A DNA stretch of 59,969 nucleotides, taken from IMG/VR virus record IMGVR_UViG_3300037310_000161. One strand, given 5' to 3'. The stretch is from a virus. Position 1 is the first letter of the stretch; the number at the start of each line of letters is the position of its first letter. Positions 1 to 58,500 of this stretch are shown one piece after another. Both the position numbers and the translations under genes were made by a program. Under the pieces are notes generated by a model. It was not told the origin of the DNA, did no database searches, and worked only from the letters and a program-made list of their open reading frames with translations.

Positions 1-127
1 TTTCCGTAATCTTGTAGACGGCATTTTCCCGCATGAATTTCTTCGCCGCCTCAAGCCGCCCAGCGCGGTTCCGGGTCTCGCTCCACATGCCCTTGAGGGC
101 GTCTATCATCATATCCTCAAGGCCCGC
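1..127. repeat. Terminal overlap copy 1, identical to 59843-59969; the contig is a circle opened inside a gene
   Basis: Read directly: tttccgtaatcttgtagacggc...catatcctcaaggcccgc occurs at 1-127 and again at 59843-59969. An exact 127-nt overlap is what a k=127 de Bruijn assembler leaves on a circular path (inference). Confidence 0.95.
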
Positions 128-3100
128 GACGTTGTAGAAAGTCTTGAAGGCGTTCTTGAGATCGTTGATCGCACTCAGATTGCCATGCTCCGGGATATCG
201 AGCTTCCCGTCACGGGTCATGTAATCCAGGGCGTGAGCCCACTCATGCGCGAGCGACCCGTCACCATGGGGCTTGGTGAGCCCGATAACCCGGTTTGCCG
301 GGTAAAACATCGCCGCCGCCTTCTCACCTTTCCCGCGAGCGCCCCACCCGATACCGAGGCGCATGTCATCGTCTATGGACATCCCGAGATCCGGCGCGCC
401 CAGAGTCTCCGCCAGCATCTTAAAGGAGTCGTAGGTCAGATCGAGGCTTCGCTGTCGGAACCTGTTTTCGACCCACTCACCGAAGTCGCCGCCCCGGAAG
501 CCGAAAACGTCCTGCAGTTCCTGGCCGGTGATGTTGCGCCCGTTGCGGTACTTGTCGGGAGTCTCTATTTCGAAGATACTCACCCGCCGGTTGCGGCGTT
601 CTATGTCCTTGTTCCGGGTCTCCTCCGTCTCGTTAAGGGTGTGGGCGTCCCAATCCTTCAGAAGGTGCATGGAGAGGTCCGTCTTCTTTTTGGTCATCCT
701 GAAGACTGCCCGCCCAAAAGGCGTAAGGTACGTGGTATCTTCGTCGTAAAATCGGGAGATTCTTGAATAGAGGGTGCGCCCGTCCTCCACCCCAAGGTCG
801 GACTCCATTTCCAGGGTGTTGACCCACCGCTCGGCGGTGTCCTCCCCGACGAAGAGCTTGAGGATGTTCTGCCGGGCTTCCATCACGGTGAGCGCGGTGC
901 TGACGGCTTCATCCATCTGCTCCAGGACGGAGATGTATTGGGCTGCCTTGGCCTTGACGAGCTTCTGCTGATCGTCCCCCTTCTTGAGCGCATAGACGAG
1001 TTTATCGGCAAACCGATTGGCCCACCCCTTTTGAATGCTGCGGTCCCGCTCAATAGCGTCCGCATAGGTCGGGAGCTTTTCCCGGAACTCCTTCAGATAT
1101 CGCTCGACCCCGGGGGTCCGGCCTTCCACCGGGTGCACCGTGTTGAAATGCTCCGAACGTGCGGTCATGTTTATGAGGGACTTGGCGATCTGCTCCGGGG
1201 TTGCGTTCTGCGTGATATCGTCCAGATCGACATCGACCGCTTTCACCCGGTCTTCGAACTTCATCCCGGCTCGCTTGCCGCCGAGGGCTTCCCCGAAGTC
1301 TTCGACCTTCGGCCCGCGTTTCTCGCCCTTCTTCTCCTCTTTTTCCGCCTTCTTGGCTGCCTTCATCTCCTCCATGAACCGCCTCAGATATGGCTTGATC
1401 TTGGCGGAGAAGCTGTCGTAAGCCCATTTCACGAACTCCCGGACATCTTTCCCGGCGGCTTGGAACTCTGCCAGGGCCGTCTGAAAATGCGGCTTCGCTT
1501 TCGCGTAGGTGTCCTCATCGATGGCGCCCGGGCCAGATTTGAGCGCCTTGCCGCCGAACAGTTCAAAGAGCCCGGAGACCGCTTCATCCAGGCCTTTGGC
1601 TCCGTGCTCCGCCGCACTCTTCAAGATGTCGCTGGCGGCTCGGACGGGTTTCGGGGTCTTGGGCGTGCGGGGCGTCCGCGGCCCGCCGGCCGGCTTCGTG
1701 ATGGTGATCGATTCATCCGGGGGCGTTTCTGCGGGGGCTGTCTCGGCCGGGGCTGCCTCGCCCTCGTCCAGAATGGCGTCCAACTCGTCCATGGACATTT
1801 CTTGGATCTGATCGGCCGCGCCCTTCCCCCCGGTTTTCTCCGGAGTAACGGTCTCTTCCACCGGGGCAGTCTCCACCGGGGCGGCTTCTTCCACTGGGGC
1901 CGGTGGAAGCGGCCCAGCTTCGATCAATTCCTTAACCTTGTCGGGGACGTTCTCCATTATGAGGGGGTAGATGACCCCGACAACTTCTCCGTTCTGCTTG
2001 ACCGCCACTATGTTGAAAGAGTTTTTCCGTTTGGATTTTTCCCCCACTTGGTGATAAGTCGCGTCCGGGAACTTCTTTCGAAACACGTCAAAGAATCGGG
2101 CGTCTACATGCCCCCCGTTATCGAATGAAATCACCCGGCGGTCTGCGGCATTGTAGAACGCAACCGGGTGAATCTGCTTTTCCCCGGTCTTCGCCTGATC
2201 CACAAAATCTTTGACCTGTTCATCTTCAATCTGGTCGAGCCCTTTCGGTGGCTTCCCCTGGATCACAATTCGACCGTCGGAATAGTAGGACTTGCCGTCC
2301 ACGGTGTGCGTAACCCATGCCTCCTGCCCGCTCGACGTGGGTAGGGGTCTGGGGAGCTTCGGGTTCGCCGGGGGCTGATACTCGGAGATCGGCTTACCTT
2401 CCCGAAACGGGGCGTGCGGATCCTCTTTGCCAGTAAAGTAGGACTCCACAAAAGCCTTGGCTTCTTCTTTCGGGACATGGGTCAGCAGGGCTTCCGCGTC
2501 CGCGAAATACTGTCCAGGTCTGTACCCACGTTTCTCCACCGCCCAGAGCTTTTTATCCTTCATCTGAGTGATGCGGAGATAATCCTTCCGGTTGCCCGCT
2601 TCGTCCAGGGCGTGAACATCAAATTCCTTGTACCCGCTCTTCGTGGTCTCGGGGCCGTACTCGACCGAAGTGTAAAGGGTCTTAACCTCGTCCAGGCCTT
2701 CTTCGACGCTGGGAAGCCGCCCGTACTTTTCGGTAAGCTCGGCTTCGTATTTCTTGAGCTTATCCTTAAGGTCCAGATCCTTTTCGATATCATCCAGGGT
2801 CACGTGGTCGATATCGTGGCGGCTTCCCGACTCAAAGGTTTCTGCTGCCGCCGGGGTTTCGGCTACTGTCGGAACCGTTTCGGTCGCTGTCGGGGTCGGG
2901 GTCGGGGTCGTTTCGGCCACTGTCGGGGCTGCGCCCTGGAGCTTCTTCTGGTTTACCGCGTAAACCTTGCCGGTTTCGTCGTGGATGACTGCCTGCCCCT
3001 TGGCGAAGCTCCTGATTGTGCCGGTGCGGGTCACACCCTTGCTGTCCATCCAGGAGACTGCTCCGCCGACACTGAACCCCTTGGGGGCTCTCGCCCCACC

Positions 3101-5518
3101 AACCCCGCCCCCGCCGGTCGGGGTAATAATCAGCTCAGATGTCGGTGATTTATCACCCGTTTCTGGGGTCGGCCCAGCACCCGCGCCGGCTCCCATCGTT
3201 TCGGTCGTCGGTGATAAATCACCGGCCGCTTGCGTACTCGGGGTGCTCTTCGGTTTTTGAGAGTCTTTAAACTGCGACATCCACCGCTTTAACGTATCGA
3301 CGGCAGATTTTTTAGACATGGCAGACCCCCACCCCAGGTCATCATCCCCGGCCATTAGCCACTGGTCGCCGTATCGGACAAACTGCCCGGAATTGTTATT
3401 AAGCAGACCGCTTTTTAGCTCTTGGGGGGTACGAAGTATAATTCTTTCCGCTCCATCAATATCGTGCCTATATTCAAACCCTTCCGGGTGCGCACGGGCT
3501 ACTTCTTTAAACTTTTCAAGAATACTTTCATCGATATCGACCCACGCTGACCCAGTGGCTGGGATAGCATCAACCGCCCCAATGATTCTTTTTCTGTGCT
3601 CGTCTTCGCTGTCGAGGGTTACTTCTTTTGGCTTTTGAACCACCTCATCCGCCTGCAGGGGTTTCTGAATCAGGGTACTGATGGATGGTTTTCGATATCC
3701 GGTCGGCGTAACCGGGGTTTCCTGCAGGCTCTTCAGCCGGATTTCCTCTTCTGTAAGCTCCGGACCCGCCGTCTGTTCTTGCGCAAGTGGTTTCCGGGTT
3801 ACAGTTTCAAGGCTTGGCTCGCGGTACGAGGCCTTCTCGACCGGGGTTTCCTGAAGCTCTTTCAGCCGCGCCTCGTACTTGGCGAGGTTCCGCTTCTGGG
3901 TTTCAGAGCGGGTCCATTCCCGGATCTTAGTCAGGTTGGCTATCCGCCACTCAAGGTCTGCCTGCTCCTGCTGGCGGCTGGCAAGCTCATCCTTCTGCTG
4001 CTGCTGCACCAGGATCGCGGCTTCATCGACCCCCCGATCATACATCTCTGTTTCCTGGTCTGCGGGGACGGGCGCTTCCTCGGGAAGGGTTTGCGGAGTC
4101 TCACGATCCGTGCGGAGCTTATGCGCGTCAAACAGGTCTTCCGCTTCAAGAGTCCCGTGGATCTCTGCGATCCGGGCGTCCACGTCCGCAGGCGGTACGC
4201 CTTTCGTCTTGGTGTCTTCCAGGTACTGAAGCTCCGTTTCAAGATCCTGCCTGGAAACCGGCGTGCCCGTGACATCCACGCCCTGATCCCCGTAATACTT
4301 CGCCATCTGCGCCCGGTAGTCTTCAAGGTTCCGGGTCTGCTCGGGCGTCCGAACCTTCTCCGGGATCTTCTCAAGGTTGGCGATCTTCAGGTCCAGATCG
4401 GTCAGACTGTCATCGGCGGAGATCACCCGCCCGTTTTGAACGGCATCCGTGGCGTACCGCCGCCACATTTCCGCTGTGGTCGGGCTCTGCGGCTTGATCG
4501 ATTCATAGGCATAGTTGACCGCCGCCATGCGCTTTTCCGGCGCGGTAGCCGGGTCTTCCAGGGCTTTCGTCATCGAGCGGTTCTGGAGAGCTTTAACCCC
4601 CTGCCCGGCCCCGACGAGGATCATGGAAGCGGTGAGCGCCGGGCCGAAGGCGGCCTTGGCGGCATCCCACCAGCCCTGATCGCCTATCCCGAGGGCGCGC
4701 TCTTCTTCAGCCTGCCCCGCCGCCGTTCCCATTTCCGAGCCGACTTCCGCAACCGCAACCCCGCCTGCCTTCTTTGCAAACTCTTTGAAGGACGTGGTGA
4801 AAAGATCCTTTACGGCGGAGAATGCCGCTTTCTTTTCCGGACCGCCGAGAAGCCCCAGGATCTTGGCCCCCACCAAGTCGGAGAGGATTTCACCGCCGGT
4901 CTCGTAGAGGGCTTCCCGAACCGCCGTGGGTCGGGTCAACCGCTCGGCTTCTTCCTGCGTCTTGCCTTCGGCCATGAACTTTTTGACGCCACGCTCCATT
5001 ACGTCATCATACTGGGCGAGCCCGAACGTAGTACCCGCCGAGAGCGCGAAGCCGACCATTGCCGGAGCCCCTGCTACAGCTACTGCCGCGCCGGGAAGGC
5101 CCGCGCTGATAGACTGTACCGCCGATTCGACGCCGCCGGTCACACTGCCCCAGACCGGGCCTTCCTCCCGGCTGGACTGCTGCATGAGCGGGGTCGTTTC
5201 CTTCCACCCTTCCAGGCTCTTGAGCCCTCGAGTCGTGAGATCGTTCACCACTTCGACCCCGCCCTTGGGGTCGAGGGTGCGCGCCGCCTGGAGGACCATC
5301 TCCCCAGCACCTACAACGCCGCGAGAAACGGCGGACCCCAGGTCTCCCAGATACCCGCGCTCTTCCGCCCCGATCTTCGCTTCCTGCTTTGACAGGTCCT
5401 CGTGGATCGTTTCCAGGTCGGAAAGGAATCCGCCCGGCTGGGGGGTTTTCGACTGAGCGCTTTCTTCCTCAGCCAGTTTCCTGTTGTGGATAGCTTCGAG
5501 ATAGTCAAGGAAAGCCAT
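1..5518 (-). CDS. Giant polyvalent virion protein, N-terminal about 1,839 codons; the ORF continues through the circular junction into 59842..49581 (5,259 aa in total)
   Basis: ATG at 5518 lies 14 nt after the upstream stop (5532) and follows a GGGAG RBS. Hand translation starts MAFLDYLEAIHNRKLAEEES. Spot checks: 5341-5401 (EDLSKQEAKIGAEERGYLGD), 5015-5104 (GLPGAAVAVAGAPAMVGFALS) and 226-310 (MFYPANRVIGLTKPHGDGSLAHEWAHALDY). The track lists no complete minus-strand ORF in this frame over 5.5 kb, as expected if the frame is open to base 1. (5518-112)/3 = 1802, so it is in frame with the listed 49581..59954 ORF. Confidence 0.85.
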   Translation of the reverse strand, partial: MAFLDYLEAIHNRKLAEEESAQSKTPQPGGFLSDLETIHEDLSKQEAKIGAEERGYLGDLGSAVSRGVVGAGEMVLQAARTLDPKGGVEVVNDLTTRGLKSLEGWKETTPLMQQSSREEGPVWGSVTGGVESAVQSISAGLPGAAVAVAGAPAMVGFALSAGTTFGLAQYDDVMERGVKKFMAEGKTQEEAERLTRPTAVREALYETGGEILSDLVGAKILGLLGGPEKKAAFSAVKDLFTTSFKEFAKKAGGVAVAEVGSEMGTAAGQAEEERALGIGDQGWWDAAKAAFGPALTASMILVGAGQGVKALQNRSMTKALEDPATAPEKRMAAVNYAYESIKPQSPTTAEMWRRYATDAVQNGRVISADDSLTDLDLKIANLEKIPEKVRTPEQTRNLEDYRAQMAKYYGDQGVDVTGTPVSRQDLETELQYLEDTKTKGVPPADVDARIAEIHGTLEAEDLFDAHKLRTDRETPQTLPEEAPVPADQETEMYDRGVDEAAILVQQQQKDELASRQQEQADLEWRIANLTKIREWTRSETQKRNLAKYEARLKELQETPVEKASYREPSLETVTRKPLAQEQTAGPELTEEEIRLKSLQETPVTPTGYRKPSISTLIQKPLQADEVVQKPKEVTLDSEDEHRKRIIGAVDAIPATGSAWVDIDESILEKFKEVARAHPEGFEYRHDIDGAERIILRTPQELKSGLLNNNSGQFVRYGDQWLMAGDDDLGWGSAMSKKSAVDTLKRWMSQFKDSQKPKSTPSTQAAGDLSPTTETMGAGAGAGPTPETGDKSPTSELIITPTGGGGVGGARAPKGFSVGGAVSWMDSKGVTRTGTIRSFAKGQAVIHDETGKVYAVNQKKLQGAAPTVAETTPTPTPTATETVPTVAETPAAAETFESGSRHDIDHVTLDDIEKDLDLKDKLKKYEAELTEKYGRLPSVEEGLDEVKTLYTSVEYGPETTKSGYKEFDVHALDEAGNRKDYLRITQMKDKKLWAVEKRGYRPGQYFADAEALLTHVPKEEAKAFVESYFTGKEDPHAPFREGKPISEYQPPANPKLPRPLPTSSGQEAWVTHTVDGKSYYSDGRIVIQGKPPKGLDQIEDEQVKDFVDQAKTGEKQIHPVAFYNAADRRVISFDNGGHVDARFFDVFRKKFPDATYHQVGEKSKRKNSFNIVAVKQNGEVVGVIYPLIMENVPDKVKELIEAGPLPPAPVEEAAPVETAPVEETVTPEKTGGKGAADQIQEMSMDELDAILDEGEAAPAETAPAETPPDESITITKPAGGPRTPRTPKTPKPVRAASDILKSAAEHGAKGLDEAVSGLFELFGGKALKSGPGAIDEDTYAKAKPHFQTALAEFQAAGKDVREFVKWAYDSFSAKIKPYLRRFMEEMKAAKKAEKEEKKGEKRGPKVEDFGEALGGKRAGMKFEDRVKAVDVDLDDITQNATPEQIAKSLINMTARSEHFNTVHPVEGRTPGVERYLKEFREKLPTYADAIERDRSIQKGWANRFADKLVYALKKGDDQQKLVKAKAAQYISVLEQMDEAVSTALTVMEARQNILKLFVGEDTAERWVNTLEMESDLGVEDGRTLYSRISRFYDEDTTYLTPFGRAVFRMTKKKTDLSMHLLKDWDAHTLNETEETRNKDIERRNRRVSIFEIETPDKYRNGRNITGQELQDVFGFRGGDFGEWVENRFRQRSLDLTYDSFKMLAETLGAPDLGMSIDDDMRLGIGWGARGKGEKAAAMFYPANRVIGLTKPHGDGSLAHEWAHALDYMTRDGKLDIPEHGNLSAINDLKNAFKTFYNVAGLEDMMIDALKGMWSETRNRAGRLEAAKKFMRENAVYKITE
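233..247 (-). other. HEWAH (HExxH) zinc-metallopeptidase motif of the giant ORF; the domain spans the junction (about 1-600 plus 59721-59969)
   Basis: The reverse complement of 233-247 is catgagtgggctcac = HEWAH. Context is GIGWGARGKGEKAAAMFYPANRVIGLTKPHGDGSLAHEWAHALDY, followed by PDEMFARAFEAYV after the junction. This resembles the metallopeptidase of phage and plasmid polyvalent proteins (recollection, needs HMM). Confidence 0.7.
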
Positions 5519-5531
5519 GGATGCCGTCTCC

Positions 5532-6959
5532 CTACTTCGTGCTCCTGTAGATGCTAAGAATGGCGTCTCTTTGTTCTTTTGGGAGACGCGCAAAGATAGA
5601 CTTCTGCTGTGCTTCCGGGTACTGCTGAAAGAGCTGCATCATTTCCTGCGGACTTTTGGACTTTGCAATGGCGGCGGCCGCCCGACTAACCTGCACTTCC
5701 GGGTCTACCTTCTGCTCCCCGGTTCTTTCATTAAAGAAAACGGGCTCTTCATCCCCTTCCAGCGTTTGACGCATCCGCACGTCATATTTATCCGCGCCCT
5801 TGGTTTCCGCCATGATCCGGGCCGTTTTCTCTGCGCCTTCGTTTGCGAGCTTGCGCTCTTCGAGCCGCCCGGCAATCACCGCTTTTTCGCGCGCGAGTGC
5901 GTTTTCACCGGAAAGGATCTCGCGGGCCATGGCTCCCTCGTTCTGCATCCCCTGTAGCGTCCGCTGAGTGGCCTGCTGCCGTGCATTTTCCACAGCATTC
6001 TGATACTGCGCGCCGGTCATGTGGTTGCTCCAAATCGGGTAATCCACCCGGCCAGGATCGGGCTGGCCGGAGTAGGAGACCCTGGACCCCCGAATCTCCA
6101 TTATAGGCTGCCTGGTGGTAGGATTCACGATTGCCGAGGGGCTATTCTGCGCGGCGGACTCCGCCTGTCTCGGCTGAAGGGCGTTGATCGCTTCCTCCAT
6201 CCAGGGCGGACGGGGAAGCGGCGGAAGCGCCGCCAGCGTCTGCTCTTGCTGGACCTTTGCTTGAGTTCTTTCCTGCTCGGCCTTCATGGCGTCGGGCGAG
6301 TTGATCGAGACCTTCATGGTTCCCCCGTCGGGGGTCCGCATGGTCTGAATGAAATTTTGAACCGGGAGCCCTGTTTGAATCGGAGCCGCCGAGGCGGCCG
6401 CCGCGCCAAGGATCTTTTGAATGCGGTCTGAGAGGCCCGAAACTTGTGCTGCGGTCTGCTGCAAAGTAGGCCTTGGTGTGCCCATACCGGACGGGTCATA
6501 GGGGCCTGGAAGAGGCTTCGGCGCCGTTACGGGCCGAGGGGTGTCCGGCCCGGGAAAGACGCCCGGATTGTTCGGATTCGGCCCGAGGGGTGTCTCAGGG
6601 CGCGTATCTTCCATCCACCTTCCGGCGGGCATCGCCTGTCCTGCCCCTGCATCCTGGGGGGCTTTTCCGGACTGATATCGTTGATAGCTTTGCCACATGC
6701 TGTCCGCGTTCGTGAAGGGGTTGGCTTGGCGATAGGGCTGTTCCTGGATGTATAGAACCCGTTGAGCGGGATCTGCGGCCTTGTCCCCGAACCCCCGAAA
6801 TGGGGCGGCAAAAGACTCCGTGTTAATCAGCCCCTCCGTCGGGGCGCCAAACTTGGCATGAATGGCTTGTTCAATTCTTCGCCCAAGATCCGGTGTGACT
6901 TCGGGGGCAGCCTGCCCCGCGAGCTTCTTTCTCTTCTCTTCTTCAGTCAAGTAAGCCAT
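5532..6959 (-). CDS. Virion-module protein of unknown function (475 aa, Pro/Gln-rich centre)
   Basis: Track ORF. A GAGGGAG RBS lies just upstream of ATG 6959. It is tightly packed between the 924-aa repeat protein and the giant ORF. No motif recognised. Confidence 0.6.
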   Translation of the reverse strand: MAYLTEEEKRKKLAGQAAPEVTPDLGRRIEQAIHAKFGAPTEGLINTESFAAPFRGFGDKAADPAQRVLYIQEQPYRQANPFTNADSMWQSYQRYQSGKAPQDAGAGQAMPAGRWMEDTRPETPLGPNPNNPGVFPGPDTPRPVTAPKPLPGPYDPSGMGTPRPTLQQTAAQVSGLSDRIQKILGAAAASAAPIQTGLPVQNFIQTMRTPDGGTMKVSINSPDAMKAEQERTQAKVQQEQTLAALPPLPRPPWMEEAINALQPRQAESAAQNSPSAIVNPTTRQPIMEIRGSRVSYSGQPDPGRVDYPIWSNHMTGAQYQNAVENARQQATQRTLQGMQNEGAMAREILSGENALAREKAVIAGRLEERKLANEGAEKTARIMAETKGADKYDVRMRQTLEGDEEPVFFNERTGEQKVDPEVQVSRAAAAIAKSKSPQEMMQLFQQYPEAQQKSIFARLPKEQRDAILSIYRSTK

Positions 6960-12035: not shown

Positions 12036-12186
12036 CTGACCGCTCCACCCTCGCCACACTCTGGCCTGTGATCTTCATGTACTGCTTAAAAAGCTCCCCG
12101 AAGCGAAATCCGCAATGCGGGCAGTTCGGGAGCTCCGCCGAAACACTTCCCTTGCATCCTGGGCACGTTTTCCTGTTGTCTATCAT
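12028..12186 (-). CDS. Small zinc-ribbon protein (52 aa), below the track size cut-off
   Basis: Hand-translated base by base: MIDNRKTCPGCKGSVSAELPNCPHCGFRFGELFKQYMKITGQSVARVERSDG. It has CPGC...CPHC. There is an ATGA overlap with the upstream stop at 12183-12186 and an 8-nt overlap with the next start. Confidence 0.5.
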   Translation of the reverse strand: MIDNRKTCPGCKGSVSAELPNCPHCGFRFGELFKQYMKITGQSVARVERSDG

Positions 12187-14063
12187 CGCCTATACCTCAG
12201 AATGAAATTTTCGAAGCGCGAGTGCGAAGTGGCAAAAGATCCTCCCCCGGAACCTTCAGCCCCCGTCGCGATCTCCCCTTGAATGAACGGCTCAAATCCC
12301 GCCGCCCCGACTGCCAGCTTGTCCGACAGCGTCCGGCCCGATCCCATGGGTGCTGGCAATTCCGCGTCATGGCCCGTCATCCGGTCCCTGGAGGTTTGCG
12401 CCGAGCCCGCTATCGTGGGCAGGGCTCCCCCAGCCAGAACGAGTTTTTCACGAATCGCGGCGGCGGCCCCCGTCACCTGCGGGACTGCTCCGGCGCGAAC
12501 CTTGATCCCGCAACGCCCGGCCGCCTCAAGATCGTACAGCTCCGCCGCGCCCTGGGCTGTGAGTACCGTCGCCCCAGCACCCGTAAACGGTCGGACTGTC
12601 CCGGCCCCGGCCAGGATCCGGGCCGAAGTTGCCGCGCCTGATCCCGTAAATTTCGGGACCGACCGCGAAACCGTCTGAAGCCCGGCCCGCCCGGCCCCGG
12701 TAAAAGCCGGGAGGCTTCTTGCGCCGCGTGCCAGGGGCTGGGTCTGCCCGGCCCCGGTAAAGGCCCGGACTGCGCCGGATCCCAGCGCCCGCGTTTCCTG
12801 GTCTGCCTGCGCGGACCCGGTAAAAGGTGCTATGGATTGCGAACGGGTTGCAAGGCAGGTCTTGCCGGAACCCTGAAAAGCGGTAAGCGTTGCCGCCGCC
12901 CGGGCGAATTTGGCTGTTTCAGCTTCCGCACTCCCAGTTATCCTCGGAAGGGTCTTCGAGCCGGTTGCCCGCGTGGCGATGTCGGCAACCGACGATCCGG
13001 CAAGCGCCGGGAGCCGCATGGTGCGCGGGTGAAGACTGATTCTTGCAGACCCCGAGAAGATTCTCCGATATGGGGGATTGATCTCGCCATCCCCAATGGC
13101 GGTGTTATTTTCCGCCGAGCCGCTTCCGGTAAAGGCCGAAACCGTTGCGGCGCCGTAGGCGAGAAGCTCCCCCTCCCCAGCAACCGCCGCCCCCGTGATG
13201 GGGTCGTCAATCCAGGTGGTTCCCGCCACATCTCCAGTGAAGCTGAAGTCCCGCGCCCCCGGCACGAAGGGCTCGATCTCGACCGACTCGACGCGGAGCC
13301 CGGTCTCGCCGGTTCCTGCAAACGGGGAGATTGAAGCGTCTCCGTCCGCCGTGGCCGGGCCTTCCATGACGTAGGTTCCCGAGCGGATATCGTCGATCTC
13401 GTCGGTTGAGAGCAGGTCATCGAAGAGGACCAGTTCGTCAAAGGTCATGTCCTCAAGATAACCGAGGTAGAAATCGCTTGTGTTGCTATAGAGCGTATCA
13501 TTGAGCGTTGTCGAGGTGTCTTCGTAGGACTGCGCGGTATCATCCCAGACGCGGCAGAAAAAGGTCTTGTTCGCCGTTCCGTCGATAACGATGGCCACGT
13601 GATACCACCGGCCCGCCACAAGGGAATCCGATACTCGGATACGCTGGTTCTTGTGAATGACTTCAAGAACGTTGGGTGTTGAGTCGGAAGAGCTGTACCC
13701 GGCAACGATATCGATTGTCGCGGCGGGATAGTTCCCCTTGGAGATCATGCTCTCCAGGGTGTCTGAATAAAGATAGGTCGGCTTCCACCAGAAACAGATG
13801 GAGAAAGTGTCAACGGCGCAGGTCGATTTGAGCGGGATATCCGCCGCGAGATTGCTGTTTGAGATGAAGAAAGCCGAAGCGCCGTCCTGAAACAGCGCGG
13901 CGCATGATCCTTCTTTGTAGTTGGTGGTGTCCGCCTCGACGGGGTCGCCCGGCGCGCCCTCATCGACCCACGTGTTGCTGCCTATGGAGTCGGTGGCGAG
14001 CGCCCCCGACTCAAACCGCCATAGGGCTACACAATGTTCATCGCCGGAAAAGTCGTTTGCCAT
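12183..14063 (-). CDS. LamG/concanavalin-like lectin-fold fibre protein with a C-terminal FTG[AS]G repeat array (626 aa)
   Basis: N-terminal half: ALWRFESG...GSCAALFQDGASAFFISNS...WYHVAIVIDGTANKTFFCRVWDD...LYLGY...DELVLFDDLLSTDEIDDIRSG, which is the LamG_3-type pattern. C-terminal half: about 12 repeats such as AFTGAGQTQPLARGARSLPAFTGAGRAGL. Confidence 0.7.
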   Translation of the reverse strand: MANDFSGDEHCVALWRFESGALATDSIGSNTWVDEGAPGDPVEADTTNYKEGSCAALFQDGASAFFISNSNLAADIPLKSTCAVDTFSICFWWKPTYLYSDTLESMISKGNYPAATIDIVAGYSSSDSTPNVLEVIHKNQRIRVSDSLVAGRWYHVAIVIDGTANKTFFCRVWDDTAQSYEDTSTTLNDTLYSNTSDFYLGYLEDMTFDELVLFDDLLSTDEIDDIRSGTYVMEGPATADGDASISPFAGTGETGLRVESVEIEPFVPGARDFSFTGDVAGTTWIDDPITGAAVAGEGELLAYGAATVSAFTGSGSAENNTAIGDGEINPPYRRIFSGSARISLHPRTMRLPALAGSSVADIATRATGSKTLPRITGSAEAETAKFARAAATLTAFQGSGKTCLATRSQSIAPFTGSAQADQETRALGSGAVRAFTGAGQTQPLARGARSLPAFTGAGRAGLQTVSRSVPKFTGSGAATSARILAGAGTVRPFTGAGATVLTAQGAAELYDLEAAGRCGIKVRAGAVPQVTGAAAAIREKLVLAGGALPTIAGSAQTSRDRMTGHDAELPAPMGSGRTLSDKLAVGAAGFEPFIQGEIATGAEGSGGGSFATSHSRFENFILRYRR

Positions 14064-14160
14064 GGGGCTCCCCGCTTGAGCTTTGGTGCGTGATAGGTTC
14101 CGGTCGGATGCGTCCCCCGATTACCGCCGGGCGATATGCCCGGCGGCTGGCCCATCGAGC

Positions 14161-14901
14161 TTAGCTCGGGCTCATCGTGTAGCTGAAGCTGTCAATAGTT
14201 GTAGTCTCGCCGGTCGTCATGGTAGTGCCGCTCGGCATGTTGATGTCCCCGCCGCTCTGGGCGATAGTGCCCTGGATGCGCGGGAGAGACGTGCTGGACC
14301 CGTTGCTGTCTGAGGCGTTGCCGACCAGGCGGTAGTGGGTCGCGGACCCGTCGGCCAGAGCTACCCCCGACCAGACCTCCCCGGAGGCTTTGTTCACAAC
14401 TCCGGCAGTGGCGTCGCCAAGCTCCAGACCGTTGTCGAAAGCCCCGGCCACGAACGCCCCCGAAGAGAGCGTGAACTGGCAGAGAAGTGTCCCGGTGATG
14501 GCTGCATCCGCCGTTGCGGGCGCCGTCCCCGAGAAGAACCGAAGAACTCCGTCTTTAAAGATGTCTCGGAGAGACCCGCCCTTGCAGGCCACGATGCACC
14601 CGGCGGCGGGGAACGCCTCCGAAGCCGCCAGTGTCCCCGTGGCGAAAGTCAGGGTTCCTGCCGTAACCGCCGTTAGGGTCACCCCAGAGAGTTTGTTACC
14701 CCCGGTGGTGGGATTGTAGGTGTAAATGAGGTCTCCGGGGGCGAAGCCCGCCGTGATGAAGCCGCTCCCGGAATCGGTGATCGTGTCCGCGCTCCCGCCG
14801 TTGTCGGAATAGGCGAGCGTGGTACCGGAGATGAAAGCCTTGACCTCGGCCTGCATCCCCATGAGCTTGTTGACAAGTCCTGTGCTGAGTTTAAGCGCCA
14901 T
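14161..14901 (-). CDS. Gly/Thr/Ala-rich virion structural protein (246 aa)
   Basis: Track ORF with an AAGGAG RBS. It lies in the structural module. No specific family recognised. Confidence 0.6.
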   Translation of the reverse strand: MALKLSTGLVNKLMGMQAEVKAFISGTTLAYSDNGGSADTITDSGSGFITAGFAPGDLIYTYNPTTGGNKLSGVTLTAVTAGTLTFATGTLAASEAFPAAGCIVACKGGSLRDIFKDGVLRFFSGTAPATADAAITGTLLCQFTLSSGAFVAGAFDNGLELGDATAGVVNKASGEVWSGVALADGSATHYRLVGNASDSNGSSTSLPRIQGTIAQSGGDINMPSGTTMTTGETTTIDSFSYTMSPS

Positions 14902-14961
14902 TCGGACGACTCCTTTCTTTGCTTTGCCGTCCGAATGTTTGGGTTGGGCAAGTTCAAAATC

Positions 14962-15906: not shown

Positions 15907-15919
15907 CTGCTCACCCCCC

Positions 15920-16123
15920 TTACGGGTTGAACTTGAAATTCCGTCCCTGACAGTGTTTCTGGGACGTGCATCCCTCTTCGAACATCCCGATCCGCCCTTC
16001 ATGAGTGAGATGAACGCAGATATCCGGGCATTTCGTGGATCGCAGGCACCCACCTCGAAACTTGTGAGGTGGGCAGAAATTTCGGAACTCGGTTTTGACA
16101 ACACTCTCTTCTATAGGAGTCAT
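15920..16123 (-). CDS. Small Cys-rich protein (67 aa, 7 Cys)
   Basis: Track ORF MTPIEESVVKTEFRNFCPPHKFRGGCLRSTKCPDICVHLTHEG...CTSQKHCQG. It has an ATGA overlap with the upstream stop (16120-16123) and fills the gap to the next RBS. Confidence 0.55.
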   Translation of the reverse strand: MTPIEESVVKTEFRNFCPPHKFRGGCLRSTKCPDICVHLTHEGRIGMFEEGCTSQKHCQGRNFKFNP

Positions 16124-16776: not shown

Positions 16777-16832
16777 TCACCCCGCGAACCTCCGGAGACA
16801 AGCCCCGGAGGTGTCATTGGTTAGCTCGGCTG

Positions 16833-17807: not shown

Positions 17808-17847
17808 GACGAACCCTTTCGTCATGCCCTAAATATACGGGTGGGAT

Positions 17848-18968: not shown

Positions 18969-18969
18969 A

Positions 18970-19263: not shown

Positions 19264-19296
19264 TACTTCGTTTCACCAATCCCAGAGGTCGAAGGG

Positions 19297-49580: not shown

Positions 49581-52500
49581 CTAATCCGCCGTCGCGGCGA
49601 GAAGCGCCCGCTCCCGCCTGCCGGGTTGCCGCATCCGGTTTATCTGACCCCGCAGTGCTTCCCTGCTGATGAGTGGAACGTAGGCCTGCCGCCCGGCCGA
49701 AAGCACCCGGTTGTTGTAAGCCGCCACCTGATCCATGATGATCTTGAGCTCCACCGGATCCTTGGCGCCGTCTGACACGTATGCCCGATACCGCTCGTAG
49801 ATCTTCCCCCTGGATTCGCCATAGCGGGACAGCTCCGCCTTAGCCTCGAACTGCCGCTCTTCGTGCATGGCCCGCTCGGATCCCCGGAACCCCGAAGCCC
49901 GCTGCATGGTCTCGGTCGTGCTCGGCCGGTACGGTTTCCCGTTCTTATCCCACACCTGCTTGCCGGAGCTGGTGGTGACCGAATCCAACTCCCGGAAGGC
50001 CCGAACGAGATTCGAGGCGAATGCCGGAAGCGCCTTTTCAGCCGCCTTGAGGGGCTGCCCGGTGGAGAGATACCCCCCGGCTTTCTGGATATCGGTCGCA
50101 ACCCCGCCGAAAGGCCCGGTAAGGTCGGTAAGAGTTTTAGGGACTTCGAGCCCGATGGCGAGAGACCCCGAGATATCGACCCCCAGAAGGCCCATGATCC
50201 CGTACCGGGCGCCTTTCTCCGCCGTGTCCCCGAGAGTCTTCCGGATGGTGTCGTAGACCATTTTCTCCGGGTCGCGGTCGTCGTCTGCGGCTCCGAGGAT
50301 CCCCCGAGCTATCGCCATGGCGGCGGCATAGCCCGCAAATCCCGAAGCCCCGCCGAGGACCGCCGGTGCCGCCAGGGCGAAAGCCAAGCCCTTGGCGTCT
50401 TGCCTGTTCAGCTTGTGCTCGAAGAGCATCTGCACGTAGTTGTGGGCAAACTTCTGAAACGTGTAGCCGGTCTGCGCGATCTTGGCGAACGGGTTGGTCC
50501 CCATGGCCCACGTCGGGAGCGTCCCCTTGCCGTACACCCCGTGCGCCCGCTCGGTTGCGAGCTGCGCGTTCTTTGCCGCCGTCGCGGCGTTCTGCCCCTG
50601 CGCCCGGGCCATCCGGTACGCGGCAAGAAGGGTCGTCCCACGGTTCCACTGCTCGGTTTTCCCGAACATCCACATGGCTTTGTCCATGACCTTAGACCAC
50701 ACGCCGCCGAACCCCTGATCCAACTCCCGCATGGCCTCCCGCACAAGCTGCGGGTTGTCCACCCCACGGGTGTGAACGTCGGCCATGAATGTCCGCTCCT
50801 CCTCGTTTGCAAACTCCTTTCCGCCCATGAAGGCCCCGTAATCTTTACCCGCCGTGAACAGCTCCTGCCCGATCTTGAGGAGGCTCCCCTTGCCGCCCAG
50901 TGCAAACTTGAGAATGGCGGGGGGTGCTGTCGTGGCCTGCGCCGTCACGTTGACGAGGGCCGACCTCGGGTTGAATCCCAGGTACTTGAAAGACACGATG
51001 GATTTCCCGAGCGCGATAGCCCGGTCCCACCTGTCGGCGTTCCGCATCTGCTCTGTGACGTATCCCTTGAGCCAGGAGTAGCGCTTAGGCTCTTTCACGG
51101 CATCAACGTCCATGAGCGCGGCCATCATCTTCTGCCCGGCTTCCGCCTTGGCGATACCGCCCGCGATCTGGGCGACGTAATTTCCAACCCTTTGGGCCGG
51201 GTCCGTGATGTAGCCCCGGACCACCTCGCCATCGCGCCCCGTTCGTGCGATCTTATGCGCCCGGAAGGCCCGGGCCTTCAGCATGTTGGATGCGGACACC
51301 AGGACTTCGCCCTGGAGGGCCGCGTTCAGCGCCGGGTGCTGGACCGCCTGATTGACCGCGTACTCGATGGCTTTTCCCATGTCCACGATGTTGAGGTTCA
51401 TCTGGATGTCTTCGGGGAGCTTCGAGACCAGGCCGTCCCGGAAGTTCGTGTAGCCTTCCCGCCCAAGCTGAAGCTTGAGCTTTTCGATCTGCCGCTGGCT
51501 TCCCTTGTGGAAGCGGTAGAAGTTGCCGTCCTTATCCTTGGCCGTCAGGAAATATTCTCCAGGCTCCCTGGACCGGGGGGCGTAAAAGCCCTTGAGTTCC
51601 CCCATCTCCTGGTAGAGAAGCAGGAGCTGGGAAAGGGTGTATTTCTGCTTGCGCCCGTCTCCCAGCGGGATCTCGATTGACGGCTCGCCCTGATCTGCTG
51701 GCGGTTTGTTCGGGTTCTTCTTCTCTTTTTCCAGGGTGTCGATGATGTCTTTGACCGGCTGTCTCAGGTACTCCAGCAACTCATCGAACGTCTTGCGAAC
51801 AGAGTCGACGGCCGCGAGCCCTTCGGCCGAAAGCCCGGACTTGGACCTCATCTCCGACCACTTGACCTCGTTCACGTCCATATCGTCCAGAATCTTTTCG
51901 ACCTTCGCATACTCCGCCGGGTCGGCTTTCCTGAGAGCGGACAGGCGGTCTACCGGGTCTTTATGCTTGAGGTAGATCTCGTTTTTGCGCTCTTCCCGGT
52001 GCTGGGTCGCATCATAGGCCTGCTTCACCGTCGGGTGGTCTATGTACTCCGGGGTTCGGAGCATACTCTCAAGGAACGTCATGTCCTTGGGGTGCAGGGC
52101 CTTCTTGAACGCCTGCACGGTCGAGGTGACTTCGTCTCTCATCTTGGACTTGAGCGAGGCATGGATGTCCGGGTTGCTGGGGTCGAACGTGCCGCGATTA
52201 AAAATGGATTTAATTTGAGTTGGAGAGAAAACAACATAAATATCATCAGTTATTGGATCATTCACATTTTTAAAAATTACTCCGTCGTTACCATCCGCTA
52301 TAGCTTCATCTAAAATCTCTGAAAAAGTTATATCGCCCCGCACTTCATGGTTAAAATCATGAATCTTAGGATTTTTTATAGATAAATATGCTGGAATTAT
52401 TCCTGGATTAAATTTTGCATATCGATCTCTCTGTAAATACATTTTTACAAAATAGTCAACCTTGTCTTTCTCTAGCTTAGCCTCATAAAATTCAACAGTA

Positions 52501-55500
52501 AGCCTTCGATCTTGTGCATATAATTTTTTTGCAACAGCAACATCATCTTTCGTTGTGTTATCGAGCACGTCATTGGCATCTAGCACTCTGTCTTCATACT
52601 GTTTTTTTGATAATTTCCCGGCATCGTACTCTCTTTTGGCAATATCAAGCTCCCTCAAGGAAGCTTTTGCTTTCTTGACCGGCTTTGGCAAAGACTTCAT
52701 TTGCTGCCTTGCTCGCCCTTCTCGTTTTTGAGTGATTTTATTGAATTGATCGTAGACCTCTTTTTGTCGAGAAAGAAAGGCTTCGCTTGTAATGTCGGGG
52801 GTCGTGTACATCTCGGCGTTGTCAGCAGATTTTGCGAAGAAAAACCCTCTTAGGGCGCTTGCAGCTCCCGTATTTTCTCCTAACCGACCAATGTCAAACG
52901 CTTTAAATTCAGGGTTGTCGGAGCCATGATACACTACCAGAGGTTCTCCATTTTCATCCACCACCTTGCTGTTACCGAACCACTTCTTGAAGGCGTCCGT
53001 GCTTGCAATCTTCTTCGCCGCACCCAGCACACCCTCAAGATTCTCGGCAGACTTCGGGCCTGCCTTCTCCAGGGCTTTCCTCGACGCCACCAGCATGGCT
53101 TTAATGTCGTTTTCGCTGAGCTGGATGTTGAACCCGAGCCGCCGCAGCCCCTCCCGAATGGCCGCGTACAGCCTCTTCAGAAATGCTGGGTTCTCCCCGG
53201 CTTCGGCCATCTCCGCGATCTTCTCGTCGGCCGCGATCAGCCGGTCGGCCTCTTCGGTGAGGTCCAGACCGTAAAGGTCCGCGATATCCTTCAGGCCCTT
53301 CTGCCCGTAGAGCGCCACCGCCTCTTTGAGGAACGGCTTGAACCTGTCCCCCAGAACCCCGCGCATCCCGTGGTGGCCCACCACTTCGTGGAGCACCACC
53401 TGCTGGGCGCGGTCTGCCGACTCCAGGTAGTCCGCAATCAGGTAAACGGCCCCGGTCGCTGGGTCGTAGAGACCCTCCAACCCGTCCGCGTCGGTCGCTC
53501 GGGAAAGGAGCTTCTGCACCTTTTCCTTAACGTCGTCCGGCAAGCCGTAGAGCGACTGCACGATCTGAATCTTCGGCCCGGCCTTCCACCTGTCGATAAC
53601 CGGGGAGAGCGCTGCCTGGATGTCGGACGCCTTGCTGCTGGACTGTGCTTGCCCCCGGGAGAACCGGAGATAGTCCTGAAGGTAGTTATCTTCCTGCTCC
53701 ATTTCGGCGTCTTGCTGCCCTTCCACCGCCCGCCGTCGCGCTTCCGCTTCCTCCGCCTGCTGCCGGGCAAGAAGCTCCTGTGTGATGGCTTCAAGCCTCT
53801 GTGTTTTCCGGGCCAGCTCTTCTTCCTGCGGAAACGGGGTCGCTATCAGTTTCTCCAGCTTGGGGGTTTCGTTCTTGATGTCCTGAATGCTCTTCAGCTT
53901 CTCTTGAATTGTTCGGGCGAGCGACCGCTCGATGTCGGTCAGACCGCTCTTAACGCCGTCCGCCATGGGTGCCTGATAGTGAACGTCTTTCCCTATCTTG
54001 TAGACAAGTGCCGTATCCCCTACCGTGAGGGAGAGATGGCCAGCCAGCGGGAGGAAAACCCTCGATTTCTTGGGCTTCCCCTTGGCGTCCGGGGTCTCGA
54101 CGGTGACAATGCGCCCGAATCTCCCGAGGTACACGCTGTCCGGGCTGTCTGCCGTCTTCTTGGCTGTCCACGCTGCATGAAGTTTGCGGGCGAGGGCGTT
54201 GACCTTGCCGCCCTCGGTTTCCAGGTTGAAATGGCGGTTGGGCTCGACAAGCCGCCCGAGGTTGTCATGCTGCGGCTTGAACTCTATCGCCATGATAGAT
54301 TCGGCTATTTGTTTGTGGATATGCGAGCGTTCAATGGTTTTCTCCGCTGCTGTCATCATCAGCGGGAGCTTCGCGAGCTTCTCCTTGGCCCGGCGGCGAC
54401 CGGACTCGTAGTCCGCCTTGACGTTCGAAAGCCGCCGCACTTCTTCATCCAGCTCGATCTTTTCCTTGTGGATCGGATCGTCTGCGAGCAACCCCTCCAT
54501 TTCCGAAGCGTCCATGGAGGTCTTCGAAATATCGATGATGTTCCGAATTTTCGGGTTGTTGCTCATGATCTGCTGCAGGACTTTTTCCTTGTAAGCCACG
54601 GTTGACCACATGAACGCATCGACCGTTTTCACCGTCCCGTAGTTGAAGATCCCGACGTTTTTGATCCGGTTCCCGTAGCGCCACCCACGCCCGTTGCGTT
54701 GCTCGTAGTTGGCATAAGTCCAGTCCACGTCCAGGTGGTGGATGTAGGACACCCGGTCTTGGACGTTCACCCCGATCCCCATCTTTGGGGTCGAGCCAAT
54801 GAGCACGCGGATTTGGCCTTTCCGCGCCTTGAGTAGCAGTGCGGCGAGATCGTCGTCGCTCTTCGCGTCGTGGATGAAAGCAATCTGCTCTTTCGGAATA
54901 CCCTTCTTGATGAGCTTCTGCTTGATGTCAGCGTAGATGTTGAACTTGTCTTTTTTGCCCGGTACTCCGCGATCCGCGAAGATGAGCTGCAGGTGGTTCT
55001 TTTCCTGGTACGCCTGCTTGTAATTCTTGGAGCTTTGATCCAGCTCTTCCGCGTCCACCGCTTTCTGATAAAGATCCCAAACCTTATCGACCGCGACGTT
55101 GACCTTCGTGTTCTCATAGTCGGGGAGAGTCGGGTCGTAGAGCCGGGGATCCATGGCGACCGTTCGCCCGTCGGAAACCACGCGGAGGATATTGTCGTTG
55201 ACCCCCCGGAAAGTAGCCTTGTCCCCGAGGGCGCGGATGCTCCGAATCCTCCGCTTGAGAAGATCCTGAAAGGCTTCCGTGAACTTGTTCCACTCCACCA
55301 TAACGGGCTCGGGCTTGCCCCCGATCACGTCCGGCCGGACAATCCCGAGGTCTTTCGCCTGCCGGACGTCCATTACCTGCCGCGCCAGCGCGAGAAGCTC
55401 CGGCACGTTCACGAACTCCGCAAACCGGCTGGTCATTTTGAAATGCCCGCCCTCCGGTGCGTACTCCGCCTCTTTGCGCATAACCCCGAACGTGTTCGCC

Positions 55501-58500
55501 CACGCATCGAACGTGTCGATCCCCAGCCGCGTAAGCTCGTTCGGCTGCAGATACCGCTGAATGTTGAAAAGCTCGCCCACGGAGTTTGTGAGCGGGGTGC
55601 CGGAAGCCAGGATGATTCCCCGACCGTTCCGCATGTGCAGGTACTGGGTCTTGAGGAAGAGGTCCAGAGCGATATTGGACTTCCCGGACTCCACACCCTT
55701 CATGTTCGCGAACTGGGTGGCAAACCCGATGTTCTTGTGGGTGTGAGCTTCGTCCGCCACAATCAGGTCGAGCCCCATTTCTTCGAACGTGGGGACTCCT
55801 TCCTCGCCTTCCGAGAGCTTGTCCAGTTTGTCTCTGAGGGCCTTGATCTGCTGCCCGATTTGCCGCACGGTGAACTGGGAGGCGCTAGCGCTGTCAGCGT
55901 GGCTCTGCACCCGCTCCATCCGCTGGATTTCCTGATGGAGGAACTCCCTTTGCGTATCGGGCGAGAGCTTGATTCGCTCAAAGGAGTTGTGGTTCATGAT
56001 GACGCAGTCATAATTTCCCGTGGCGATCTGGGCGAGCTGCCGCTGTCTCTTCTGCGGGTTGGTCTTGGAAACCGCTATCGTCAGGATGTTCGCCCCTGGA
56101 TAGAGCCGGAGGAAATCCGCCGCGATCTGCTCGACCGTGGCTTTCTTCACGATAAGGACCGGCTTCTTGGCGAGCCCGAGCCGCCGGGCCTCCATGATTG
56201 ACCCGATCATCGTGTAGGTCTTCCCGGTGCCAACCTCGTGCGCGAAGTATGTCGCCCCGGTCTGAAGGAACCGCCAAATGGCGTTCTTCTGGTGCGGTCT
56301 GAGCTTGATAATCTCGTCAGGCACTTTGCCGGGGAAAGTGAGGTGCTCCCCGTTATACTGCCGGTCCACAAACGAGTTGAGCCGCTCGTTGTAGGTTTTC
56401 TCGAGCTGGGCGGCCGCATCGTCGTTTTCGTAGACCCACTCGCTGAGCCTCGCCTGGAGTTTGGCGAGCTTCGCGTTAGCGGCGTCTGTCAGGGCGATGT
56501 TGGTGACCATCCGGGTCTTCCTGTTCCCGTTCTCGTCCAGGTACTCGATTTTATCCTCGATGACCGGAAAGCCGCCATTCAGCGCATAGTCGATAAGCCC
56601 ACGGTCGCTACCCTTTTTGAAGAGGTTGATCCGGTATTGTTTGAGCCCGGTCGCTTCCAGAACCTTGACGAAAAGAGGCACACTCAGGGAGTCGGTGTCA
56701 GGGTCGAAGTTTTGATTGTATTCCCTGATTGCCTCTTCAGAGCTGCCGAAGGTTTCTATCAGTTCATCACGTTCCTGGAGCGTCAGGTTTTCTCGAAGAG
56801 AGGTATACCCGATTGGGTTCTTCTTGTAGCTGACAACCCCGAACTCTTCTGCGGCAACCAGGGAAACCATCGCGTTGTCCTTCCGGCGTTTGGCTTCCGC
56901 TTCGGTACTCGCCCGGAAATGGGGGTTCCACATTCCCGTTTCAAGTACATGATCGACGTAAAAACCACGGATTCCACGGCCACCGAACAGACCGTCCTTC
57001 ACGAAGCTCTGAACCACCTGCGCCGGAACCCAGGACATCCCAAGACGTGCGCGGATGTCCGACATGGGGAGATCGACGGGCATTACAATCTTGAGCGCCT
57101 CGACGTTTTCCTTGTACTTCTCGTCCAGGGCGGCCGCCGCCTCGGCCACCGCCAGCTTGCGCCGCACGTTTCCGCTCAGATACGCGTCTGCCGCGACGTA
57201 CCCGGTCTCGGGGTCGTCGAATATCTGCCCCTTCAGTTCGGCAATAAGGGTGTCCCGGGTTTTGCCGGTGAGCTGCCCCATGTAGGCGAGGTCCACCCGG
57301 CCGCGCCACTGAAGCGAATAGAGAAGACTTTCATGTGAGGTATCCGCCGAAGTCGGCGGCTCTACCGGGGCGAGAGTGTTCTTGAAGAAAATGTCCGCGA
57401 GCCCGGTAACGGTCTTCGTCCCACGGTCCCACTTCTCCAGGCTGAGGAGAAGCCCGCCGTCCGGGTCATCAACGATGAGCCGGGCATTTTCCGGTTTGTT
57501 AATCGGCCCATACGTCTTGACCAACTGATCGTAGGCGGTGCGGAGCTGTTTTCTGAGAACGGTCAGGTCGGCGGCGGATTGCTTTTTTACCTGCGCGCGG
57601 AGAAGGTTTCGGATGATCCCCCGAATACCAATTACCCCCTTCATGAACTCCTGTTCTTTCGGAGTCAGATTGTCCCGCAGGGAAGGCCGCCCGTCCCGGT
57701 TCTGGTAAATCTTCCCGTTGTCCCCCACGTAGTAGTTGTAATTTTTGACGTGAGCGGCCTCCGGGATCATGTTCGTGAAGTCAAGCTCGATAGGAGCCCG
57801 GTCCTGCCCGTAAATCGAGACAGGCAAGCGGTCTATGGCGCTTCGCAAATCGTCGCGGTACGTGCTCTTCATAGCAACGTAGGGGCGGTATGCCCCGTAG
57901 CGCCCGGAGTTGACCGCGAGATCCCCGAGAACGTTCTCCGGGACCGCCTGGAAGAAGTTGTTCACCTGTGTTCTGCGGGGAGTCGAACCCGCTATGAAGT
58001 TGCCGTTGGAATCCACCTCGGGAAGGATGACCGCTTTGGACTCCACCCAATCGGGGACCGTTGGAAGCGCCGGTAGCCCTTCGCCTTTCTTCCGGAAGAT
58101 GAGAATGTCCGCTCCGGCGAAAGCCCCAGGGAAGACACCGTTTGGGAGCCGGATAGCGGAAACGAGGTCTGCGCTCTCCGCGAACTTTCGGCGGGCCTTG
58201 GCGTCTTCCTTATCCATGGTCCCCGTGGACGTGAGAACCACGGTCAGGCCGCCGGGCTTTGTAATGTTGATCATCTTGCTGATGAAGTAATCGTGGATCT
58301 GAAACTCTTCCAGGTTGTGCGTCCGGTCCACGGGCTCGGTCTGCCCGAACGGCACGTTGGAGATGGTGAGGTCATAGAAGTTGTTCGGGACGGCGGTCTT
58401 TTCGAACGGCTGATTCAGGATGTTCGCGTTCTGGTAGAGCTGGGCCGCGATTCTCGCGGAAATCGGGTCGATATCCACCCCTGTGAGGAGGGAATTTCGC

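Follow-up and report, generated by a model that had tools for sequence, protein, structure and literature searches.

Our analysis of IMG/VR virus record IMGVR_UViG_3300037310_000161, a stretch of 59,969 nucleotides (nt) that we call the window, showed that a single uninterrupted gene of 15,780 nt runs on the minus strand across the ends of the contig. The gene encodes a protein of 5,259 amino acids (aa), whose domain content marks it as a predicted polyvalent DarB-like phage protein, a class that is already known. Somewhat unusual here are the size of the protein, an N-terminal domain without a family match, a divergent PLxRFG motif and a compositionally foreign ADP-ribosyltransferase (ART) module. 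The protein is among the largest phage proteins that we compared, and it does not overturn current understanding.

The two ends of the window are an exact direct repeat (bases 1-127 equal 59843-59969, and the identity fails at 128 bases), as is typical of a circular contig written out in linear form; the unique length is 59,842 bp. The minus-strand frame that opens with the ATG at 5518-5516 holds 1,839 sense codons and no stop down to base 1, as had been proposed in an earlier note made from the sequence alone. The arithmetic by which that note had joined this frame to a listed open reading frame (ORF), (5518-112)/3 = 1802 codons, is correct: base 112 is base 59954 by way of the repeat, and the 5' frame and ORF 49581..59954 therefore share one frame. 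The listed ORF begins at an internal methionine, aa 1803, and its frame stays open for five more codons, to 59969. A six-frame scan of the circularised and rotated 59,842-bp sequence returned a single ORF of more than 1,000 codons (5,299 codons from stop to stop), and counting from ATG 5518 reproduced the length that the note had given, 15,780 nt or 5,259 aa plus stop. This amounts to 26.4% of the genome, in agreement with its estimate of about 26%. A stop-free run of 5,259 codons would arise by chance at this base composition with P ~1e-78. The gene and its landmarks are as follows:

1..5518, minus strand: 5' part of the giant gene, codons 1-1839, a frame without a stop that starts at ATG 5518-5516.
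49581..59842, minus strand: 3' part of the giant gene, from the rest of codon 1840 to the stop at 49581-49583, continuing from base 1 on the circle.
59843..59969, no strand: terminal direct repeat of 127 bp, a copy of 1-127; assembly overlap inside the giant gene.
5528..5532, minus strand: Shine-Dalgarno-like GGGAG, 9 nt 5' of the ATG, overlapping the last base of the upstream TAG.

The giant gene seems to be missing because the circular assembly was linearised within it. Cutting a circular contig inside its largest gene turned a quarter of the coding capacity into apparently 'ORF-less' sequence covered by spurious antisense ORFs, an annotation loss that is cured by rotating the contig ahead of gene calling.

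Evidence for the join that is independent of the window came from contigs found through an exact-sequence look-up of the 475-aa protein encoded just upstream of the giant gene. In Logan contig SRR12687606_298778 (22,163 bp), the next called gene lies 13 nt downstream of the 475-aa gene and its product has 5,259 residues. This Logan contig (L006) agrees with the circularised giant gene at every position of a 9,987-nt stretch that spans the junction (0 mismatches), and JGI contig 3300043260 Ga0484861_0004824 crosses the junction within 5,728 identical nt; the 5' part of the gene is identical in three independent contigs (L006, L007 and L008). The two contig ends thus join, as the note had supposed, and do so in independent assemblies. 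At the protein level, a relative of 4,402 aa (P0049) aligns in a single high-scoring segment pair (HSP) over aa 1241-2842, bridging the junction at aa 1802-1839, and phrog_18947 and phrog_29900 each match both halves of the gene colinearly. The edge-truncated product of 3,462 aa had no record in an exact-product look-up, and an IMG/VR scan with a junction-spanning segment of 601 aa returned no close relatives.

The ATG at 5518 is supported as the true start by the closest relative, P0011, whose alignment begins at its own residue 1 (MALLDDLDRI versus MAFLDYLEAI). The upstream 475-aa gene stops at TAG 5534-5532, which leaves 13 nt before the giant-gene ATG, and the GGGAG ribosome-binding site that the note had placed near this stop is present at 5532-5528. 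The coding signal is continuous: the G+C content (GC) at codon position 3 (GC3) exceeds that at position 2 in 51 of 51 segments of 600 nt along the giant gene, with mean GC1/2/3 values of 0.62/0.40/0.73. In the plus-strand ORFs over 1-5518, which the note had described as antisense-looking, GC is highest at codon position 1, as in antisense shadow ORFs, and none matched a PHROGs family above noise (the sole match was phrog_23258, E = 0.0097, to ORF 2414-3145). We rejected them as genuine genes on these two grounds.

The giant protein has a mass of 583 kDa and an isoelectric point of 5.9. Family searches were run on overlapping protein segments, and the residue numbers below refer to the full-length protein:

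4319..5434, minus strand: N-terminal conserved all-alpha domain (N-domain), aa ~29-400, matched by 266 clusters and represented by an AlphaFold2 model.
1925..2707, minus strand: second conserved region, aa ~938-1198, matched by P0088 and P0149 in an exhaustive search and by no family.
218..559, minus strand: putative zincin-like metallopeptidase module, aa 1654-1767, with a partial match to CLCA_X NF041907 (E=3.3e-33) and matches to phrog_616, phrog_18947 and phrog_29900.
59577..59810, minus strand: LPD1 (large polyvalent protein-associated domain 1), aa 1851-1928, Pfam PF18796, E=3e-19, 69 bits against a cut-off of 27.
58086..58634, minus strand: predicted N6-adenine DNA methyltransferase, aa 2243-2425, Pfam N6_Mtase E=7e-8, with motif I VLEPSCGIGHF and motif IV NVPF.
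54672..56309, minus strand: predicted superfamily 2 (SF2; SNF2/ResIII) helicase, aa 3018-3563, Pfam ResIII, SNF2-rel_dom and Helicase_C.
52101..52958, minus strand: predicted ART-PolyVal ADP-ribosyltransferase, aa 4135-4257 with a homologous second half to ~4420, Pfam PF18760.
49704..51590, minus strand: C-terminal PLxRFG 'tail-700' domain (C-domain), aa 4591-5219, NCBIfam NF032893, E=6.5e-49, 167 bits against a cut-off of 100.

At least two unrelated effector domains are thus combined in one ORF, namely zincin, LPD1, N6-methyltransferase, SNF2/ResIII helicase and ART-PolyVal. The best PHROGs family for the protein is phrog_10089, 'DarB-like antirestriction' (E=0, 1,336 bits), with its best stretch at profile positions 2287-3264 of 4,647, and the methyltransferase precedes the helicase within one protein, as the DarB-like family requires. 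In the PDB, the methyltransferase has sequence matches to M.TaqI and a type I M subunit, and its motif I is canonical, as are the helicase motifs (Walker A GTGKT, the DEAH box and motif VI QRNGRGWR). The zincin module matches CLCA_X at 115 bits, where the cut-off is 260, and only over model positions 5-115 of 250. A motif scan found the protein's only HExxH motif, HEWAH, within this module (aa 1758-1762, nt 233-247), and the tblastn matches of this region are Stx phage proteins labelled 'LPD5' in RefSeq. Polyvalent proteins are recognised in part by a portal-terminase setting, and here TerS, TerL, portal and capsid are all encoded on the same strand as the giant gene.

The ART-PolyVal match has E=2e-20 in two stretches (74 bits against a cut-off of 31), with split HSPs to P0017, P0099 and P0031. 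It coincides with a sharply bounded segment of low GC3 (0.18-0.48 at ~52161-52988 of the minus strand, aa ~4125-4400, with flanks at 0.8-0.88), and the module looks like a recent in-frame acquisition from a donor of lower GC. The C-domain match extends over model positions 1-645 of 681 at the very C-terminus of the protein. It lies above cut-off and stands despite the loss of the name-giving motif (see below), and we thus treat the C-domain as a divergent PLxRFG member. Hydrophobic Gly/Ala-rich segments occur in both end domains (aa 137-159 in the N-domain, 4991-5009 and 5055-5073 in the C-domain), and low-complexity linkers rich in Pro/Thr/Ala/Glu and in Gly lie between modules (aa ~760-900, 1200-1290 and 2070-2100). 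Pfam, NCBIfam and PHROGs gave no match to the N-domain, and a tblastn search of 50,697 phage records found nothing similar to the first ~1,570 aa, of which it is a part. The giant protein showed no lytic transglycosylase domain. Only two of its 5,259 residues are cysteines.

The ends of this protein are conserved in its relatives and the middle is variable. An exhaustive HMMER search with aa 1-1200 as query (clusters at 50% identity, E<=1e-3) yielded the 266 clusters mentioned above, nearly all of which match only over aa ~40-400, at or near their own N-terminus, in proteins of up to 5,669 aa. Both end domains are present in 31 of the 150 best matches; in these 31 relatives the median start of the N-domain is aa 45, and the C-domain, which always ends at the C-terminus, stops a median of 9 residues short of the last one. 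The stretch between the end domains measures 555 to 4,079 aa in the relatives and ~4,160 aa in the window protein, the longest seen. Its contents differ from one relative to another: LPD3 in P0081, ART-PolyVal in P0099, no Pfam domain in P0011 or P0072, and the methyltransferase-helicase pair in P0049, P0017 and P0095. P0011 and P0012 are closest to the window protein in their end domains (41-47% identity), yet they lack the methyltransferase-helicase pair, and the relatives that are closest in this pair have more distant ends. The nearest end-domain relatives are therefore not the nearest cargo relatives, so that ends and cargo have different histories. In P0083 (5,669 aa) the methyltransferase-helicase block matches twice with equal scores (aa 1213-2940 and 3030-4757), which is either an exact tandem duplication or an assembly artefact.

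A word-indexed protein search with the 1,839-aa N-terminal part of the protein returned only 10 matches, mostly to the zincin region, and none with the N-domain alone. The Gly/Ala-rich composition of the N-domain is the probable reason why this search missed it; its family did emerge from the exhaustive HMMER search. AlphaFold2 models derived from alignments of the giant-protein relatives were of reasonable confidence and gave 14 helices for the N-domain, with a predicted local distance difference test score (pLDDT) of 81.6, and a mostly helical fold after a small alpha/beta start for the C-domain (pLDDT 73.7). In a fold search of BFVD, a set of predicted viral structures, the C-domain model matched the final fragments of numerous giant polyvalent proteins from phages, with E down to 3e-21, and weakly matched podophage proteins of 1,400-1,500 aa, including one 'internal virion protein D' (E=1e-5). 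These modelled matches are a lead, not proof, that the C-domain may belong to the ejection apparatus. The end domains also bore a weak resemblance to membrane transporters and designed helical repeats, which we dismissed as noise (E>0.1, template modelling score (TM) <0.3).

Taken together, the identity of the protein as a DarB-like polyvalent protein and a general mechanism of packaging, ejection and anti-defence appear to us a probable account, with the individual steps of the mechanism held less firmly than the whole. By analogy with P1 DarB, with gp69-gp75 of Bcep22/JC1 and with the virion RNA polymerase (vRNAP) of N4, a few copies of the protein would be packaged in the capsid, the two conserved end domains would serve its incorporation and its ejection through the tail and the cell envelope, and the protein would enter the cell with, or ahead of, the DNA. 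There, the methyltransferase-helicase pair may shield the incoming genome from restriction in cis, as P1 DarB does, and the ADP-ribosyltransferase may modify a host target. For the zincin, two roles are possible: processing of the polyprotein at the flexible linkers rich in Pro, Thr, Ala and Gly, either before packaging or after delivery, or an attack on host proteins.

More tentatively, and with rather less than even confidence, we propose that the N-domain and the PLxRFG C-domain could form a conserved packaging/ejection chassis for exchangeable in-frame cargo (0.5 to >4 kb of protein). The window would then represent the largest cargo seen (~4,160 aa), together with a freshly acquired ART cassette, in a lineage of uncultivated phages that probably infect Syntrophobacteraceae and whose head module has its only other known occurrence in a virus assigned to Methanosarcina. 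The fixed ends, the variable middle and the foreign composition of the ART module suggest how phages may swap anti-defence cargo in frame and, should this be borne out, the conserved ends could serve in finding or engineering phage-delivered proteins.

Several observations weigh against these proposals. A Foldseek comparison with the PDB gave no significant match for either end-domain model, which makes the role assigned to the end domains a guess, and a sequence search of solved structures with the N-terminal part likewise returned nothing. The matches of the internal virion protein D type have TM scores of 0.2-0.4 and a root-mean-square deviation of ~20 A. Neither PL.RFG nor a near variant occurs anywhere in the giant protein; at the aligned position (aa ~4594-4601, ~51560-51583 of the minus strand) it reads APRSREPG, which keeps the P, R and G, and the closest relative has PRIREAG. 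Motif IV of the methyltransferase, NVPF, is a variant of the canonical NPPY/F, and the ~540 aa at ~400-940 have no detectable homologue. Lastly, packaging, ejection, processing and anti-restriction are all deduced from relatives with only 25-36% identity in the modules.

The most serious alternative, in our view unlikely as the principal function, is a mainly structural role for the protein in ejection, as an internal core protein and podophage equivalent of T7 gp16, P22 gp16 or N4 gp50 at the inner-membrane end of the DNA ejectosome, in which the helicase-methyltransferase would pull in or process the DNA. The conservation of the ends around a variable middle is consistent with this, as are the hydrophobic Gly/Ala-rich helices of both end domains, the BFVD matches of the C-domain to 1,400-1,500-aa podophage internal virion protein D or similar proteins, and the presence in some relatives of AYNAGPG, a lytic transglycosylase-like motif, directly before the N-domain. 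N4 vRNAP, moreover, is the third ejection protein of its phage and has the same tripartite plan (PMC13434306), and the unannotated proteins of 626, 709, 924 and 475 aa encoded just upstream could be other ejection proteins. However, the fold links are weak, the PDB fold searches gave no match to the solved ejection proteins of T7 or N4, and ART and zincin are typical effectors rather than structural parts. An ejection role is also compatible with delivery of a DarB-like polyvalent protein and does not exclude it.

A little less likely still, we think, is that the polyprotein never acts as a whole, with its internal zincin cutting it into separate enzymes during or before head assembly and only some of the fragments being packaged. 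Such cleavage and partial packaging has been reported for P1 DdrB. The single HEWAH-bearing zincin module and the low-complexity linkers that separate the modules would fit this scheme, and autoproteolysis by such peptidases has been proposed by Iyer et al. (2017; PMC5512222). However, no cleavage sites are known, host proteins are equally possible targets of the zincin, and N4 vRNAP is ejected at full length (PMC13434306).

The idea that the long ORF is an artefact of a false circular join, a chimeric assembly or genes fused by sequencing error, which could draw on the facts that the 127-bp overlap is a common assembler k-mer size and that the ART region differs strongly in composition from its flanks, is effectively excluded by two assemblies from other samples or runs that are identical across the join, by the single HSP of homologue P0049 and by the colinear PHROGs matches, and is further opposed by relatives of 4,400-5,500 aa with the same end-to-end architecture, by the unbroken coding-frame signal and by the equal placement of the ART module, ahead of the C-domain, in P0017, P0099 and P0109.

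As a probable DarB-like polyvalent protein, the window protein can be compared with known systems. P1 DarB, after which the PHROGs family is named, is a protein of ~2,255 aa from a myovirus with accessory Dar proteins. It has the same fused methyltransferase and helicase; the window protein is 2.3 times longer and adds the zincin, the ART and the end domains. In a tblastn search of the 50,697 phage records, annotated DarB-like proteins of BcepIL02, CSP3, PEp14, Pavtok, Atu_ph08, Itty13, Ralstonia phages and Pseudoalteromonas phage Y7 aligned at 30-36% identity over the methyltransferase and helicase. The closest parallels are podophages of ~60 kb, comprising Bcep22 (gp75), BcepIL02, JC1 (gp69), Serratia Parlo, Erwinia PEp14/Pavtok, Ralstonia Heva/Gamede/Gerry and Pseudoalteromonas vB_PalP_Y7, in which one gene at the end of the virion module takes up ~19-24% of a 57-63 kb genome and in which the methyltransferase-helicase core is shared. 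Giant DarB-like/PLxRFG proteins at 19-24% of ~60-kb podophage genomes are thus already documented. JC1 gp69 (4,515 aa, 22.1% of the genome) was detected by mass spectrometry in CsCl-purified virions, the giant gene of Bcep22-like phages is likewise the last large one of the virion module, and JC1-type phages have no accessory Dar proteins (PMC9144972). The protein of Serratia phage Parlo has 3,764 aa (PMC6606913) and that of Pseudoalteromonas phage Y7 has 4,675 aa in a genome of 57.7 kb, the largest annotated one among the isolates compared; the C-terminal domain of the window protein is related to those of both. Unlike these podophages, the window has a longer protein (5,259 aa, 26.4% of the genome) and head genes unrelated to theirs, with a sole relative in the phage collection, the Methanosarcina virus MetMV (see below). 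Public protein sets already contain metagenomic relatives of 5,130-5,669 aa, and in one of these sets the window protein itself has been called.

Polyvalent proteins that include the combination of SNF2, adenine methyltransferase, zincin and ART have been reported in phages, with delivery alongside the DNA and autoproteolysis by such peptidases being proposed, and a polyvalent protein of an Acetonema longum prophage has the same enzyme set as the window protein (Iyer et al., 2017; PMC5512222). The signature pair of LPD1 and ART-PolyVal in one polypeptide with unrelated effectors is a further likeness described there, whereas the two end domains of the window protein match no Pfam LPD family; no description of the arrangement of fixed ends around a variable middle was found in the available part of PMC5512222. 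Klebsiella Lastavirus phages have a PLxRFG-type protein of 495 kDa that accounts for 19% of the genome (PMC9505181). There too it is the giant gene of a podophage, of ~62 kb, and the C-terminal ~700-aa domain family is shared, whereas the N-terminal domain of the window protein differs. The virion RNA polymerase gp50 of N4 (Schitoviridae; 3,500 aa), which is the third ejection protein and is ejected at full length, is likewise built as an enzyme flanked by an N-terminal and a C-terminal domain (PMC13434306). The two proteins are not homologous as far as tested, with no RNA polymerase domain in the window protein and no PDB fold match.

The giant gene is the last large gene of the virion module, which includes the following genes, all on the same strand and upstream of it:

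25370-25936, minus strand: TerS.
23923-25389, minus strand: TerL.
19650-21605, minus strand: portal.
16836-17825, minus strand: major capsid protein.
14965-16104, minus strand: head-closure protein.
14164-14901, minus strand: virion structural protein.

Between these structural genes and the giant gene lie those for the four unannotated proteins of 626, 709, 924 and 475 aa, and past it those for proteins of 136 aa (phrog_644), 798 aa and 286 aa. Most replication genes occupy the opposite strand at 33-44 kb; the primase gene, at 29884-31956, is on the minus strand. The placement of the giant gene in a late virion operon, after the TerS, TerL, portal, capsid and head-closure genes, agrees with the earlier note. 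Its rank as the 23rd gene of that operon is only approximate: in a rough gene call it came out as the ~22nd gene on the minus strand, a figure that shifts with the choice of small ORFs to include.

In the 50,697 phage records, the only relative of the portal is that of MetMV, a metagenome-derived Methanosarcina virus (43% aa identity over 92%). The capsid and head-closure genes match as well, with 14965-21605 of the minus strand aligning to 12116-20627 of MK170447.1 (MetMV, L001). We did not adopt the reading of the window as an archaeal virus that these matches to MetMV alone would suggest. The host of MetMV was predicted in silico only (PMC7164591), its GC is 42% versus 59% in the window, its 3,002-aa protein is barely similar to the giant protein, and relatives of the giant gene occur in metagenome-assembled genomes (MAGs) of Syntrophobacteraceae. 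The last point comes from a scan of genome contigs, one genome per species, with a four-sequence alignment of the N-domain as query. It found two loci, both in uncultured Syntrophobacteraceae MAGs (CAZURN010000352.1, L002, and CAZEOY010000005.1, L003), one of which has a GC of 57%, and both encode, upstream of the N-domain match, homologues of the window's structural proteins of 246 and 924 aa. The portal as query in the same scan returned nothing. These loci lead us to suggest, as a weak best guess, a syntrophic deltaproteobacterium (Syntrophobacteraceae) as the host. Either the head module is common to viruses whose hosts belong to different domains of life, or one of the two host assignments is wrong.

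Three further features of the genome lie outside the giant gene. The region 46001-48000 has a GC of 0.48 versus 0.59 for the genome and falls on the 798-aa ORF (46665-49058, minus strand), which is without a PHROGs match and may be a horizontally acquired gene for a receptor-binding or tail-fibre protein. The replication module has an SNF2-type helicase gene of its own, distinct from the helicase within the giant protein (33337-35385, plus strand; phrog_62, E=3e-115). The only tRNA of the genome, a tRNA-Ser with anticodon GCT, is at 45224-45315 on the plus strand, and a tRNA-Ser is also found in Bcep22-like phages with giant DarB-like genes (PMC9144972).

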